A DNA stretch of 64,000 bases, the filler included, from Rhabdomonas costata (taxonomy: Eukaryota): assembly GCA_019059605.1 (NCBI GenBank). It is 47 parts of 47 records of this genome, joined end to end, with 100 filler letters (N's around TTAATTAATTAA, not from the genome) between each part and the next. Parts side by side here need not be neighbours in the genome. Positions count along the whole stretch, not along the records: positions 34,127 to 35,383 come from JAHMHO010021400.1; 46 more parts are not named here. One strand, given 5' to 3'. This document shows, one piece after another, positions 33,595 through 62,654 of the stretch; positions within the stretch are counted from its first letter, which is position 1; each line of letters opens with the position of its first letter. A model generated the notes under the pieces. The model was not told the origin of the DNA and searched no databases. It saw only the letters and a program-made list of their open reading frames with translations. The position numbers were made by a program, and so were the translations under genes.

Positions 33595-34746
33595 GTGTGG
33601 GGCTGCTTTCTTTTTGTCGCTTTAAATTGACATGTTATGTTTTTATTGGCATTGTATTCGCATTGATTGTCACCAAGTGGAAAATGTAAAATCATGTTGG
33701 TGGATGGTGGGGAGGCGGCTTGACCGTATTGTTTCTACTTTTTATTTAAGGTCTTTACCTTGTGTAGCGTTTTTTATCTTTCGGGATTGATTGCCTTCCT
33801 GCACCGTTACCTGCAATTTATGCGGGATTTTTCCGCCAGTTTCCCCAGACGAAGACGTGCCTTTTTCTGAAATCTGCTTGCTTGATTTTAAAGAGCTTTT
33901 TCAGTGCCCTTATTCACACTCTGGGTTGCATATGGGTTATGGAACTTCCCTGGTATAGGCCGATGGCGGGGCAGAACCACCTGCAAGTGGTCCGGAAGCA
34001 CGATCCAGATGTCAGTCCCACCCCCCNNNNNNNNNNNNNNNNNNNNNNNNNNNNNNNNNNNNNNNNNNNNTTAATTAATTAANNNNNNNNNNNNNNNNNN
34101 NNNNNNNNNNNNNNNNNNNNNNNNNNGTTGTGTTTTTCTTTGTAGCAACGGAGAAATTTTGAAAACTGATTGGGTCAGTGGCATATGTCCGAAAACGCGG
34201 TGAAGAATTGATGTGCATCCTTTGCTCGTGGGGAAATTTACCGCAGTGCCTCATCGCTGGCCCATTCTCTCTCCCTGCCTCCCGCATCCAATGATGGTAT
34301 ATTTACGCAATAACACTGAAGCGCGCAGGTCAGGTTTCGGTTTTTCGTTCACCTGATAAGAATGGTTCTATGTGTTGGCTGCGGCAGATTTAATTCACAC
34401 CTTCATTGAATGCACGTTGAATTATTTAACGCACGATTGAAAAACCACATTGCGGCGCTCCTTGGTTGGAGGATGGCCAACAATTTATCATTCCTTGGGT
34501 TTGCCCTTGGCTGGTAACCACGCTCTTGTCTGATTTATGTCTCTTGATTCCTGATTCCGGGCTAATTTTTGGCTTTTTTGTCTGTCATTACCAGGGGCGG
34601 CGGTAACAACTTTGATTCTGAACGATTTATCATTTGTTAGTGTCCGATGTCTGCAGTGCTTGGCGAGGGCTGGGGATCATTATAGCATCTTATCAATTTC
34701 TTCTTGACTGCCTGCTCGAACTCTTCACAATTCTTCACTATCGCCA

Positions 34747-35197
34747 ATGAAGTTGACCCTGGTGCACGTTTGGGTAAAGCCCGACCGGGTCGACGACTTC
34801 ATCGCCGCGTCCAAGCAGAATCACCAGAACTCGATCAAGGTATCCTTTCCAAGCATCTAGCGAATTAAAAAAGAAAACTCGAAACGGAAAATATTTAACA
34901 CACGGATATCGCCTCCATCACGGGCTCTCACCCGTAAACTTTCGGCTGTCAGGTGGCTTCTGCGCCGCTGAACTTTCTTCCCTTCTTTCTTTGATGTAAT
35001 ATTTGCATCAGTTTGCATTGGGGTGTGAGCATTTATGTCTTTATTTATAGATGCTGGTGGTTGGGGTGGTTCAGGAACCCGGAAACATGCGCTTTGACGT
35101 GCTGCAAGACCCCAAGGAGCCCACCAAGTTTATCCTTTACGAAGCATATGAATCGGACGAGGCCGCGGCGGCTCATAAGGACACGGCTCACTACAAG
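34747..35197 (+). CDS. lsrG: LsrG-like ABM-family protein (phospho-AI-2 isomerase-like), exons 34747-34839 and 35075-35197; 3-prime exon outside the contig
   Basis: [72 protein letters not shown] aligns without gaps to bacterial LsrG as I recall it; phase-0 GT-AG intron; second GT donor at 35198. Confidence 0.88.
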
Positions 35198-35513
35198 GTA
35201 GGATACCAACATCTTAACAAGTCACATCGTAAATTAAGTTCGTTTATTTAGGTGTTATAAAGAGTTTATCCAACGCCAAGAAAGCCACTCTGAAATAACG
35301 CCAAATCGAAATTCGTCGCGTGCTGCTCTCTTGCGCTGTTGAGTTATAAAAAAGCTGGTAACAAAGCTTTTCGACACACAACANNNNNNNNNNNNNNNNN
35401 NNNNNNNNNNNNNNNNNNNNNNNNNNNTTAATTAATTAANNNNNNNNNNNNNNNNNNNNNNNNNNNNNNNNNNNNNNNNNNNNGTGTGGGGGGGGTAGTT
35501 GGGTGGGAGAGTA

Positions 35514-47184: not shown

Positions 47185-49131
47185 TAACGCGAAGAACGCA
47201 AGGGCCCGCTGAAAGAGTCTGACGGCCGATGTTCAAAATTGCTGTCCGTGGCATTGCCCCTGAAGCAATTCATTGCACATGGACATGTCGCAATGAACCC
47301 CGAGACTATCTCATCTCGGTTGAGACCCTTCGCATTAAAATTCTGGATTGTTGTTGGAGCCCAGTAACTGTGAATGGAACTGGGTATGTACAAGAGCGCG
47401 TGTAGCGAAGTACATTTCGTGTGAAATCATTCTCGCATATCCCCAAGCGCAACGGAGGGCATAATGACGAAACCAACAACGTATGTATAAAAACCCACAT
47501 GCCTCTATACCCGGGGGCCCAGACAAATGGCTCTCGGTCGGAAGAAACAAAGCAAGAATAGAGAATCCCCCGGACACCACCTGCAGCACCCTGCCGTGGA
47601 CCTCCGTCCGCCCGCCACGCAGCAGCTGCACCACCACGCGGCACCCGTTTGGGTCNNNNNNNNNNNNNNNNNNNNNNNNNNNNNNNNNNNNNNNNNNNNT
47701 TAATTAATTAANNNNNNNNNNNNNNNNNNNNNNNNNNNNNNNNNNNNNNNNNNNNGGGGGGGTTGTTCGAGAAGTGCACTCTGTGTGGGTGTGGCCCTGA
47801 AACCAATGTCCTGGCGTACTGGTTCCGTGCTTCCCGTGCGCCAGGCGGGACCAACGTCACCCAGCTGTGGTACCCCAGCAACTCCAGCAAGGACTGCATC
47901 CCTGGACGAGGCTCGCCCTGGGTGGACATCATCCTCCGGCCGAAGCCCTTGTGGGCCCTGCTCGCTCGGGCGATGGATGCGGTGATTGAAAACAAGAAGG
48001 CTCGGCCCATGCCGTTTCACTTTTATCCTAACCGGCTGTGGGATGCCCCGAGGTGAGAGACAGGCCACGATGGGATCAAAGTGATAAGTAGTGCCGAGCC
48101 CGGGCGCGAGCGAACGGCTGCGGCTCAGCTGGGTTTTTGAAGCACTCAGGCCAGAGCGATATCAGCTGGAAACAGGCTTCTTTCGAATGCTAGTGTTTAC
48201 AATCTGTCAGTCGGTATTGTTTGGGGCGACTTTTTTTTTGCGTGACAGCTGTTCGTGTCCACTGGGGAACGAGAACCCAGGTGGTGGGTTTTAGTAAGAG
48301 GTTTCTTTAAGTAGGCTAACACCTTCAAATGCACTCGGAGAGCAAAACAATTCTTGTTGTCCTTTATGCTTTGATGCCATTGACGGACCAGATGTCTGTG
48401 CATGTAACTCCCGGATATTGGGCCAGAATTTGGGTGGTGTGGTTGTTGATGTTGAGGTTGTTGACCCTGCCTACTCTCGCAGCGGACGCGCTTTGGTGAC
48501 ACTGTATTGGGGCTGAAGCTTTTTCGGCCATAATAAACACTCTGTTCTGAGTGGATGTTGTCCCGGTGATTGCTGGCTGCACTCCAATGGAGAGTCCAGC
48601 CTCCGCTGCAGCAGTGGAGCCGCCTCCCCTCGTGGATGAGGATCCTTTTATGATTCCGCCATCATTGTACCACAAGTACCTTGCCCTGTTTGAGCGGCAC
48701 CGGGAGCAGCCTCTATGGATTTCCAGTATGCCGCTGCACGGCGAGGGATTCGGGAAAAGCGTCGCTCTGTAGTTCTTCCGGATTGTGTCTGTGTGTGTGG
48801 CAGCCAGGACGGCTTGCAGGTTGTGCACCGTTCTGGATTTGTGGTTTGATTTCCGCTTTTTGCGAGTTGTTTGCGAGTCCCCCCACCCCGTGATTCTTTG
48901 TTTCTGCTGTCCGTTCCATCCTGCTTGCGGCTTATTTGCATGGTTTTGTGTTTCCCCTTCACCAATGCTTCGTGCCGTTAATCGTTCACTCGCTTGCTGC
49001 GAGTGTTCCACACAAACCCNNNNNNNNNNNNNNNNNNNNNNNNNNNNNNNNNNNNNNNNNNNNTTAATTAATTAANNNNNNNNNNNNNNNNNNNNNNNNN
49101 NNNNNNNNNNNNNNNNNNNGGGTGTGGGGGT

Positions 49132-50383
49132 AGATTAAAATATTTAGGTGATTCAGTAATTCGTTTATTATTATCTGAATATTTATATTGGAGATATGAA
49201 GATCAAGATGAAGGATTTCTAACAAGTCTAAGAATAAAATTAGAAAATGGTATTATGTTATCTAAAATATCACAATCATTAAATTTACATGAATATGTTT
49301 TAGTTGGTGATTGTGCACAAGAAGATACTGACATTGTTTATAAATCAAATTATAAAACAATTATGAGTGAAAGTGTAAAAATTCTAATTGGTGTATTATA
49401 TATTGATAAAAAATTAGATGTATGTAGAACATTATTTATAAATATAATAGAAGATGAATTTGATATTGCTGATATATTATATAATAACATAAATTACAAA
49501 GATAAATTATTACAATATTATCATAAAATGAAATGGAATGATCCAATTTATATCGTAGTTGAAAATTCAATAAATAATTATTCACATGAATTTGTAATTG
49601 GTGTACAAAATGGAATCGATAAAACAATTATTAGTTTAGGAACAGGTACAAGTAAATTAAATGCTGAACAAGAAGCTGCAAAAAATGCATTACAATATTA
49701 TGATGTTGATTATACATCATCTCAAGTTATACAAACTAAAACTGATCATGATATAAATGAAATTATACCACATTTATTAAATATGAAAAATATACATATA
49801 ACAGAAGAATATATAATAAATTTATTTAAAACATATAGTGAAGATATTGAAATTGATGATTTACATTTATATCAAATAGCAATGACACATAATTCGTATA
49901 CACATAATATTAAAAAATTAAACATAGTAAAAAAATTCATTAAAAATACATTAATTGTTCCTTCTAAACTAAAATCAGTAATACCATTACAGAAACAATC
50001 ATATGAAAGATTAGAATTCTTAGGTGATTCTGTATTACGTCTAATTTTATCAGAATATATATATTTAAGATATAGTGAAAGTAATGAAGGATTTATGACA
50101 AAATTACGAACAAATATTGAAAATAATAAAATATTGAATATTTTAACAAAAAAAATAAATTTACATAATTATTTATTAATCTCTAAAATAGAAGAACAAC
50201 ATTGTGGACGTACTGGAAAAATAGATATATTAGGTGATTTATTTGAATCTTTTTTAGGTGCTACTTATATTAATACATCATATGATACATCATATAAATT
50301 TGTTAAAGAAATATACGAAAAAGAAATAGATTTTGCATCTATCATTTATAATGATACAAATTATAAAGATCAATTATTAAGAT
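49132..50383 (+). CDS. Tandem ribonuclease III (degenerate RNase III - dsRBD - intact RNase III - start of second dsRBD), giant-virus (Mimiviridae-like) type; truncated at both ends
   Basis: Frame is open from contig start: RLKYLGDS...; dsRBD NYKDKLLQ...GTGTSKLNAEQEAAKNAL; second domain SYERLEFLGDS...ILGDLFESFLGA; then NYKDQLLR; intronless and about 20% GC by eye. Confidence 0.92.
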
Positions 50384-54571: not shown

Positions 54572-55835
54572 TTGTTTTGGCGGAGCTGCACTATTGGAAG
54601 CTTCGCTTGACTCAACTGAGCGGGCTGGCCGACCAGCTCAAAGCACGGCAGTGCAAAACCGTCTTGCAGGTTTTGAATGCAGCAAAGGATCCGCTTTTGG
54701 TGCGGTTCCGGGAAATGGATGGCCGGGTCACTGACGTCCTAAACGAGGTAAAGGACAACGTGAAGTATTTATCTACCCTGGAGAAATTTGTTGAGCCAAT
54801 GTACGCCGCGGATCCGTGCCGAATGATTGCTGCCATTCCTGGGCTGATAAGTGCCATTCGGATAATGCACAGCATTGCCAGGCATTACAACACGGAAAAG
54901 ATGACGTCGCTTTTCACACGGATCACAAATCAGTTGATTGTGTGTTGCAGAAGCTACATCGAATCTGAAGGATCCATTTGGGAGCAAGACACTGGAGCTG
55001 TCATCACCAAGCTTGGGACCTGCATCAACCTGAATCAGGTGTACCAGAGCGAGTATCGACGCACCAAAACCGACTTGTCCTCCAACTTATTTGGGAAACA
55101 GTTCGACTTCAGTGAAGTTGCCATCTTCAGTCGATTTGACGTTTTTTGCGCGAGAGCCGAGAAGTTAATTGCCGTGCTTGAGACGACAATGCAATTTGCT
55201 ACTCTGGCCAAGTCTCCGATAGAGGGCATCGGACCGATCTGCACAAAGTTTGAGAACGTTTTCACCACTTTTCGTCGAAGAAACAATGCGGACGTTCTGG
55301 ATACTCGCAAAATTGCTTTTGATGCCGTGTACCACGAGTTTAGCAACGGCGTCGCGGACCTGTCTGTGGAGCTAGTGGTGTTTATCAACAATTGCTTTCT
55401 GACGGTTACGCAAACCACCAAGGCATTGGAGCTGCTCGCGCAGTTTCGGGCGGTGCTCAGCAAGGAACACGAATCTCTGCTCGAGGAAAAGCACCTCGCC
55501 ATTTTTCACAATTATGGCCGTGATTTAGAAATGCTTCGGTCCGTGTACGAGAAGAGCAAGGAGCGGCCCCCGATTCAGCGCAATATGCCTCCTGTTGCCT
55601 CTGCGATAGCATGGGCCAGGCAGTTGCTACGACAGATTGAGCAGCCCATGTTAAAGTTCCAGGAAACGCCCTCAATCTTGAAGTCCAAGGATGCGAAGAG
55701 GATAATTCGAAGTTACAACCAGCTTGCCAAGACGCTGCTGATGTTTGAGGCACGATGGTACGCAAAGTGGTGTGAGGGGATTAAAGCTGCCAAAGCAGGT
55801 CTCGGAGCTACGCTGCTAGTTGAGGACACGAATTC
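54572..55835 (+). CDS. Axonemal dynein heavy chain, N-terminal tail (DHC_N1), outer-arm gamma / DNAH5-8-like; truncated at both ends
   Basis: ELHYWK, NEVKDNVKYLSTLEKF, SIARHYNTEKMTSLFTRITNQLI, FDFSEVAIFSRFDVF, RNMPPVASAIAWARQL; contig-long open frame. Confidence 0.95.
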
Positions 55836-61285: not shown

Positions 61286-61391
61286 CAAANNNNNNNNNNN
61301 NNNNNNNNNNNNNNNNNNNNNNNNNNNNNNNNNTTAATTAATTAANNNNNNNNNNNNNNNNNNNNNNNNNNNNNNNNNNNNNNNNNNNNGG

Positions 61392-62654
61392 TCAAACTTT
61401 AACGGTCAAATTCCTTTTACATTTAAAACACCAACGAATAAATGGTGCAAGCCTAGAGAATGCTTTTTAGCTGTAAAACTTCGAATTGATCAAGTAGATG
61501 CTTCAGGTGTTCATAGTCCTCTTCAAGCTGTTTCTGGTGCTGGAACACCCTACATTTCCAAAAATCCCGTCTCTCTGCTCTTCTCCACTGGGAAAGTCTT
61601 AGTCAATGATAAGATGATATCCAATATGAACGAATTGCCTGCCACGAATACATTATTTCGTACAATTTATGATACAAAGAGCATGCAAGAAACGATAGAA
61701 TCAACTAATCCAATTTTGCCACAATCTCTGACTGACACTGTTAGCAATACAGCACGTCTTGCTTATGCTAATAAATGTCAGCTTCTATTAAATACGTTTC
61801 AAGAGCAGACTTTAACTTGGTCTTTACCATTTCCACTCTTTCAATCTAATGAATGGATTCCGCCACATACTAAAGTAGAAATTGATTTTAATGTAAACAC
61901 GAATTGGATAAATGAGATCTTATCTGTAGTTGGGACGTTTCCAGCTGGTGGTGTAGTTCCTTTATCATCAACTGGTACAAATTCCACTGTATCGAGCGTC
62001 GGAATAGGTGTGGACGATATCAGTCTTTGGCTTTATTATGTTACAGATGTAACACCTGTAAATATGGTTCATGAAATTCATCTTAAACAGTACTTTTCTC
62101 AAGTACATACGATTACATCTAATAATGAAGCATTCACATTGACACTTCCAAATGGAGGACGTAACATTACTCATATTTTAGCTTGCTTCTTACAAACTGG
62201 TAGGTCTGGAACTGTAAAAAAATCATCTAATGATTTTAGCTCTGGTTTTACAAATGCTGCAACAGAGGCTAAAATTACAACTGATGCTACAACTAAGCTT
62301 CAAATGATTAGATTCCAACTTGATAAAACATACCCAAATCCTGATTATAACTTATGTTTTGATTCATCTAAAAAAGATTCTATAGACGTGGGTAGAGCAT
62401 TCTACGATTTCATTAATAATGCTGATGCTAAATTTGATCGTAGTGGGAATGTTGTATCTATTCAACAATGGATTAATGAACCTATTTTCTGTTTTAAGGT
62501 AAATTCTGATGCTACTACTTATCACGAATCACTTCAAGTATATATTACGTTAGATTCTGGTTACACACCTGCTACGACTTCTTCTCAACTTTTGGTAGTA
62601 GCATTGTATGATGAAACATTGCGGCTACATTTCGATACAACATTCCCACAAACC
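61392..62654 (+). CDS. Putative double-jelly-roll major capsid protein of a Polinton/Maverick or Polinton-like virus (nearly complete, both ends cut)
   Basis: Frame open from 61392: NFNGQIPFTF...WCKPRECFLAVKLRI; NPVSLLFSTGKVLVNDKMIS; PLFQSNEWIPPHTKVEIDF; VDDISLWL; YPNPDYNLCF; RAFYDF; VSIQQWINEPIFCFKV; LLVVALYDETLRL. Motif order fits Polinton-type capsids; intronless and AT-richer than host contigs. Confidence 0.75.

Follow-up and report, generated by a model that had tools for sequence, protein, structure and literature searches.

The LsrG protein of Escherichia coli, a (4S)-4-hydroxy-5-phosphonooxypentane-2,3-dione isomerase represented by the NCBIfam equivalog NF007791 and the structures PDB 3QMQ and 2GFF, carries residues N25, E54, H65 and H70, which we take to be its catalytic residues. 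According to PMC2728841, LsrG acts on AI-2 only once LsrK has phosphorylated it. ArqI of Pseudomonas aeruginosa is an LsrG-like ABM protein outside AI-2 catabolism, which acts in signalling beside a glyoxalase and, according to PMC12274486, serves the dicarbonyl (glyoxal) response. Another comparison is offered by the structure 2OMO ('DUF176') and by LsrG-like proteins encoded in bacteria as a pair with an Fe-type alcohol dehydrogenase (Fe-ADH), such as that of Stanieria cyanosphaera (STA7437_RS22900/22905); no function for the 2OMO-type family was found in the open-access literature.

In this study, a gene of the euglenid Rhabdomonas costata was analysed that lies on the contig at positions 34127-35383 (G000:C21400) of the window, that is, of the whole stretch of 64,000 nucleotides under analysis. 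The window is composed of 47 separate contigs of about 1.26 kb each, with runs of N around the stop linker TTAATTAATTAA between them, and because neighbouring contigs were artificially joined, adjacency in the window is uninformative on linkage. The genome assembly comprises 97.2 Mb in 104,289 contigs, and partner searches were run in it exon by exon. Other contigs of the window hold an uninterrupted frame with RNase III and dsRNA-binding domains at 49120-50383 (21% GC; a host nuclear origin is improbable), the N-terminal region of a dynein heavy chain in 420 intronless codons at 54574-55833, and a 420-codon open frame at 61390-62654 (35% GC) for which the Pfam scan gave no match. In addition, the assembly includes, on G000:C25815 (L004), a second SSU rRNA fragment that is eukaryotic and of ordinary length, unlike the long, insertion-rich main SSU rRNA of the host, which has a euglenid look. 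This fragment, which we assume to be green-lineage-like, is that of a contaminant eukaryote within the assembly.

From the sequence alone, an ATG-initiated exon, a phase-0 GT-AG intron, a second exon and a further GT donor at 35198 had been proposed, which accounted for 72 of the 96 residues of the protein. All of these boundaries were confirmed in the sequence, and the features of the complete gene are as follows:

34685..34746, plus strand: 5' UTR, from the start of the spliced contig
34747..34839, plus strand: coding part of exon 1, beginning with the ATG, 31 codons for residues 1-31, holding N25 (sequence, LsrG model and spliced contig)
34840..35074, plus strand: intron 1, 235 nt, GT-AG, phase 0, at a junction of AAG and G (skipped in the run X4 contig)
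35075..35197, plus strand: exon 2, 41 codons for residues 32-72, holding E54, H65 and H70 (sequence, Pfam ABM and LsrG models and spliced contig)
35198..35383, plus strand: 5' part of intron 2, GT donor at 35198, phase 0, ending at the contig end (spliced contig)
L002:226-300 on G000:C21281, outside the window: exon 3, 24 codons for residues 73-96, including W74 and R75, followed by TAA and preceded by an AG, the acceptor of intron 2

The stretch was present in four public runs from a single sample, three of which yielded unspliced contigs only. In run X4, a 374-nt contig omitted exactly the 235-nt GT..AG intron and extended 95 letters past 35198, and this 95-letter tail matched G000:C21281 directly after an AG; exon 3 was located by a genome search with a bacterial relative together with the same tail. 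The record of X4 gives no library kind, the run shares its sample and study with the three unspliced runs, and none is recorded as RNA, which is uninformative on expression; since its contig is spliced, however, the X4 sequence itself implies RNA. The removal of a GT-AG intron in a transcript, seen in one contig from one sample, is that of a nuclear spliceosomal gene. Both introns are phase-0 GT-AG introns at AAG and G junctions, and the GC content of intron 1 is 43% compared with 55-56% in the exons. The complete product of the three exons has 96 amino acids, with a GC3 of 0.76, and one copy of the gene was found in the genome. Moreover, the first letter of the spliced contig is the G of an AG dinucleotide (34684-34685), which weakly hints at a spliced-leader acceptor, and an in-frame TGA at 34705-34707, within the transcribed 5' part, rules out an N-terminal presequence or leader peptide. 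The gene is therefore nuclear, spliced, transcribed and single-copy, with three exons, and encodes a stand-alone ABM-fold protein without a targeting peptide.

Two other accounts of this sequence were rejected. Bacterial contamination, already discounted in the sequence-only reading, is ruled out by the spliced contig and by the existence of the third exon, and a C-terminus formed by read-through of the second donor is ruled out by the continuation of the transcript into exon 3. The run X1 contig departed from the assembly through small deletions and a single change, all in noncoding sequence, at window positions 34566-34610 and 35040-35070, and possibly represents a second allele. Two further ABM-domain exons in the genome (L142:1093-1215 and L143:167-325) were unrelated, with 21% identity or no alignment.

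With respect to identity, exon 1 matched positions 1-31 (E 4.8e-5) and exon 2 positions 32-72 (E 5.4e-15) of the NCBIfam LsrG model, consecutively and without gaps, and exon 2 alone reached 43.8 bits against the Pfam ABM model PF03992, whose gathering cut-off is 23.1, which places the protein in the ABM family. The gap-free alignment to E. coli LsrG that had been claimed for the first two exons holds for the full 96 residues (44 of 96 identical, 46%), with N25, E54, H65 and H70 identical in the same columns. The agreement in these four residues and in length, together with the fact that LsrG was the only NCBIfam model matched, speaks for the explanation originally proposed, in which a horizontally acquired LsrG would enable the protist to break down or quench bacterial AI-2 via phospho-DPD; the database label of the relatives, 'autoinducer 2-degrading protein', points the same way and is automatic. 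However, N25, E54, H65 and H70 were kept in 344, 355, 356 and 350 of 358 relatives, respectively, so that they mark the wider family rather than the lsr enzyme and lose the identifying value that had been given to them.

The cut-off of the LsrG equivalog NF007791 (135 bits) was not reached, the exon-wise scores being 23.8 and 55.7 bits with no match for exon 3; the nearest full-length relatives scored 82-104 bits and E. coli LsrG 191.8 bits, and a divergent true LsrG may also fall below this cut-off. Among 359 compared domains ranked by their match to the window protein, E. coli LsrG stood 237th, and the top matches, 64-71% identical, included those of a sister family with up to 71% identity. 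The LsrG proteins of true alphaproteobacterial lsr operons, often labelled plain ABM, themselves share just 41-44% identity with the E. coli protein, which favours the AI-2 explanation insofar as low identity alone does not exclude LsrG function. The residue at position 74 was W in all 120 relatives chosen by exon 2 alone, whereas all 7 lsr-operon LsrG proteins have C-V there, and the W74, R75 and V78 of the window protein are C, V and L in E. coli LsrG. A W followed by R or K after the H70-Y71 motif and an identity of 50-70% to Fe-ADH-linked proteins, the features by which the sister family was recognised, were both found. Furthermore, the best PDB match was 2OMO (E 5e-15), before E. coli LsrG (1e-11), and the W74 motif is shared with 2OMO and the bacterial proteins paired with Fe-ADH. 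The window protein is thus a member of the uncharacterised sister family of LsrG to which 2OMO belongs; its assignment to the LsrG-type rather than the YgiN-type ABM proteins stands, and its naming as LsrG proper does not, as it lies outside the lsr-operon clade. An ESM Atlas look-up of P0001 returned bacterial ABM clusters only, and a profile built from the three exons and P0043, dominated by the latter, returned mostly relatives of P0043, with no named eukaryote in the best 120.

The same comparison bears on whether the protein is a generic ABM enzyme, that is, a cofactor-free oxygenase or redox-cycling (YgiN-like) protein acting together with a reductase on quinones or small aldehydes, or else an ArqI-like aldehyde sensor without catalytic activity. 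Against the family profile the LsrG structures scored 104-110 bits, whereas no other ABM structure exceeded 37 bits, and the nearly invariant LsrG residue set argues in the same direction. ArqI, whose structures we take to be PDB 8ECX and 8ECP, is more distant from the family, with a profile score of 33-35 bits compared with 104-152 bits. ABM membership and the participation in the degradation of aromatics or in quinone redox cycling that PMC12274486 describes as postulated for the LsrG family are in keeping with a generic enzyme, which we nevertheless regard as quite improbable.

The gene neighbourhoods of the bacterial relatives were sampled in three ways. The LsrG-like/Fe-ADH pair in GTDB was represented by the best 80 of at least 584 loci, 44 of the 80 being at least 10 kb long, and the window protein is 50-66% identical to the proteins of these loci. 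Fe-ADH was found in 68 of these best 80 loci, directly downstream on the same strand in 67, and was absent from 12. In an independent sample, the LsrG HMM was run on 300 genomes from the class to which G001 (Methylotuvimicrobium) belongs, a tally that includes two unpublished genomes; 68 matched, none of them above the cut-off, and 29 of the HMM-chosen loci, leaving out one unpublished and one seed genome, were examined with flanks of up to 1.5 kb and contained Fe-ADH in 23 cases. In metagenomes, Fe-ADH occurred in 63 of the best 80 of 586 loci and adjoined the gene in 58 of the 72 with at least 400 bp downstream. The annotation of a cyanobacterial plasmid shows the same ABM and Fe-ADH pair. 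The sister family and the Fe-type alcohol dehydrogenase therefore form a two-gene unit in bacteria, and the carriers of the module include cyanobacteria, nitrifiers, methanotrophs, autotrophs, Bacteroidota and many algae. No bacterial locus had an aldo-keto reductase adjoining the gene.

The lsr pathway was conspicuous by its absence from these loci. LsrK, LsrR, LsrB, LsrC, LsrD and LsrF were found in none of the best 80 of at least 584 GTDB loci, none of the 29 HMM-chosen loci and none of the best 80 of 586 metagenome loci, so that no lsr pathway gene appeared in any of the 189 bacterial sister-family loci of the best-matching and HMM-chosen samples; generic ABC-ATPase matches only were seen, in 6, 1 and 1 loci, respectively. 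In contrast, LsrK or LsrF lay directly upstream of LsrG in all 7 annotated lsr loci used as a control. Moreover, none of 5 carrier genomes had an LsrK above the cut-off. These observations weigh against the catabolism or quenching of AI-2 by the Lsr route, since the nearest relatives adjoin Fe-ADH and, in these samples, never lie in lsr operons.

The Fe-ADH partner most resembled lactaldehyde, propanediol and methanol dehydrogenases, with all 6 tested proteins below every curated NCBIfam cut-off. This resemblance, together with the polysaccharide degradation presumably practised by many carriers, would suit another explanation, in which the isomerase and the dehydrogenase form a step in the degradation of an external sugar, polyol or sugar-derived compound. 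Against this, no conserved transporter, kinase or regulator lies near the pair, since ORF clustering placed no third gene there in more than 8 of the best 80 of at least 584 GTDB loci (the dehydrogenase cluster was present in 65), and the pair also occurs in autotrophs, in methanotrophs and in algal forms with leaders. A role in external catabolism is accordingly considered unlikely.

In the genome of R. costata itself, nothing matched the LsrK model, and the E. coli LsrF query produced no candidate, across the 104,289 contigs searched exon by exon; three of the four FGGY exons belong to glycerol kinase and one is unclassified. An Fe-ADH query likewise gave no candidate in this genome, where the window gene, in contrast to the bacterial pair, is also split by introns. 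The sole Pfam Fe-ADH match in the genome was glycerol-1-phosphate/glycerol dehydrogenase-like. Because the assembly is highly fragmented, the missing LsrK, LsrF and Fe-ADH are weak evidence; the search for LsrK and LsrF homologues that had been suggested with the AI-2 proposal thus speaks against that proposal to this extent. An exon-like stretch at L128:828-1145 on the minus strand (G000:C24254) had as its closest match (E 3e-13) the NAD(P)-dependent glycerol-1-phosphate dehydrogenase, whose family is characteristic of archaea.

An aldo-keto reductase on G000:C5384 (L131) is a candidate partner of a different fold. Four exon-like pieces of it were recovered, with the 5' and 3' ends absent, and they were 52-54% identical to reductases fused to ABM domains, as against 36% to E. 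coli DkgA/DkgB. Of the 9 reductase loci of the genome that were compared, this one best matched the fused reductases, the next best showing 40-46% identity over more than 150 amino acids. Its connection to the window gene rests on the likeness to fusions in other species rather than on linkage or co-expression.

These fusions occur among the eukaryotic relatives, which are numerous. Members of the family were found in the dinoflagellates Symbiodinium natans (database label lsrG), Effrenium, Durusdinium, Polarella, Heterocapsa and Yihiella, in green algae (Prasinoderma and Pseudoscourfieldia), diatoms, cryptophytes (Chroomonas and Guillardia) and Vitrella, and outside the algae in the choanoflagellate Diaphanoeca and the diplonemid Namystynia. 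In contrast to the single-domain window protein, the eukaryotic forms mostly carry two domains in tandem. Among 30 relatives chosen for their length, 11 were fusions to Fe-ADH, 3 to an aldo-keto reductase and 1 to a SWEET-type transporter domain, and 15 contained ABM domains only. The carriers of reductase fusions include the Vitrella brassicaformis cluster, whose fusion is present in genome and transcript sets alike, and Namystynia karyoxenos; some bacterial fusions may be frameshift artefacts. P0192 and P0196 are fusions to a SWEET-type sugar-transporter domain (Polarella glacialis) and to PF08670. A hydrophobic N-terminal stretch scored above the threshold in 4 of the 5 eukaryotic forms checked, and the leaders of the algal and Eutreptiella forms are presumably for plastid targeting. 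Such organelle-type leaders fit poorly with the interception of an external signal, and with the neighbourhood data they leave the AI-2 explanation very improbable.

The closest named eukaryotic relative is from another euglenid, Eutreptiella braarudii (P0478 of EukProt, with P0191), and is 71% identical to the window protein over 94 amino acids. Among 579 compared sequences, the motif PR.GQKM was present in the window protein and in 2 others, both of the Eutreptiella braarudii cluster, which suggests inheritance from a shared euglenid ancestor. The Eutreptiella protein differs in carrying an N-terminal leader of about 160 amino acids with two hydrophobic stretches, which we take to be of plastid type; the window protein has no leader. 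The sequence-only reading had named a broad, vertically inherited eukaryotic ABM clade as the finding that would tell against it, and this was encountered in part, in the form of a likely euglenophyte orthologue and many eukaryotic relatives.

Taken together, we lean towards the explanation that the gene is old in euglenids, probably came from bacteria and encodes a dicarbonyl isomerase whose product goes to a reductase. Conservation of the residue set points to carbonyl-shift chemistry like that of LsrG: the acid-base chemistry of LsrG would be kept, and the carbonyl of a hydroxy-diketone would be shifted through an enediol. The product would then be handed to an NAD(P)H-dependent carbonyl reductase, which in this genome may be the aldo-keto reductase on G000:C5384. 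That the family is paired again and again with reductases of two unrelated folds implies reduction of a carbonyl within the same pathway, and cooperation of an isomerase with a carbonyl reductase, judged from sequence comparisons, is reasonably probable.

The substrate is more a matter of guesswork. As kinase, transporter and thiolase are not nearby, it is more likely produced inside the cell, and it could be a compound like DPD or phospho-DPD that arises there from the breakdown of pentose phosphates, in which case the role would be metabolite damage control and not signal interception; this is a guess that we hold open to considerable doubt. In support, DPD arises spontaneously from ribulose-5-phosphate according to PMC2443158 and the Discussion of PMC8092285, and the former source proposed in 2008 that organisms without LuxS, including non-bacterial ones, may need machinery to metabolise DPD derived in this way. 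The presumed plastid leaders of the algal and Eutreptiella forms and the part played by ArqI in the glyoxal response also speak for such a substrate. A reductive inactivation of AI-2 by a different enzyme is put forward as a hypothesis in PMC4942472. Many carriers of the module, among them Bacteroidota, Fibrobacter, Spirochaetota and this protist, are not known to run the Calvin cycle, which counts against the explanation favoured here, as do the failure to find the Fe-ADH partner in this genome, the 12 GTDB loci that lack the dehydrogenase and the lack of an adjoining aldo-keto reductase in the bacterial loci. Phospho-DPD may correspond to an elimination by-product of Rubisco, of opposite C4 configuration. 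No confirmation of this idea was found in the literature searched, and a passage of PMC8787814 on the subject names only the bisphosphate.

The origin of the gene was examined with trees on 98 columns, which are weak and left out most unnamed bacterial proteins and, for the LG+G4 tree, also the long-branch eukaryotic domains; the results cited from the 160-row tree come from a quick tree. The 7 lsr-operon LsrG proteins formed a clade without the window protein, supported at 100/99 (LG+G4) and, with one extra Ensifer row, at 98 (mixture model). This phylogeny, of the kind proposed with the original reading, thus separates the window protein from the LsrG of lsr operons; a sister position to them was not rejected (AU p 0.27), which is a point for the AI-2 explanation. 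In the mixture-model tree, the window protein paired with P0191 (86), and these two together branched as sister to the remaining eukaryotes (SH-aLRT 84), the diplonemid being next. In the LG+G4 tree, it stood apart from Eutreptiella and the other eukaryotes, in a Bacteroidota-rich group (91/92). The other eukaryotic domains formed one clade in both (96 in the mixture model and 99/84 in LG+G4). None of the three groupings was rejected by AU tests (with lsr LsrG, p 0.27; with Eutreptiella, 0.35; all eukaryotes, 0.41), and as the position of the window protein also shifts between models, the trees do not settle donor or timing.

The identity of the window protein reaches 71% with bacteria and is 44-65% with non-euglenid eukaryotes. 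The earlier proposal of horizontal acquisition followed by intron gain is plausible in view of the approximately 70% identity to bacterial proteins, and we consider it likely that the gene is of bacterial origin and was acquired before this lineage split from the photosynthetic euglenids, with the introns gained later. A single early acquisition in eukaryotes or Euglenozoa, inherited with many losses, would replace a separate euglenid transfer, and this is possible but doubtful. The single clade of the other eukaryotic domains, the sister position of the window protein and P0191 in the mixture-model tree and the AU value of 0.41 for one eukaryotic clade speak for such a history, but the placement in the Bacteroidota-rich group in the LG+G4 tree, the closer identity to bacteria than to non-euglenid eukaryotes and the single domain of the window protein, where most eukaryotic forms are tandem, speak against it.

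In conclusion, a bacterial-type gene with introns in a euglenid is ordinary, and its eukaryotic relatives are already automatically labelled lsrG, so that the family-level result is the more useful one. In the open-access literature searched, neither a eukaryotic LsrG-like gene nor the ABM and Fe-ADH pair was found described; as far as that literature shows, the module is undescribed, and it carries the main interest of this work. Many of the 'autoinducer 2-degrading' automatic annotations are probably mislabelled and belong to this isomerase-plus-reductase module. The module is also a concrete candidate for the DPD-metabolising machinery proposed in 2008 in PMC2443158. As a broader, speculative and rather unlikely possibility, the LsrG sister family with its carbonyl reductase could be a kinase-independent means of disposing of the DPD or phospho-DPD that ribulose phosphates give rise to spontaneously. 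It would have been taken into the plastids of algae and the cytosol of euglenids and would have recruited reductases of two unrelated folds, and the quorum-sensing LsrG would be a specialised offshoot of it. If this is true, the disposal route would also destroy imported AI-2, so that depletion of the signal could be within reach of many bacteria and protists that have no lsr operon.
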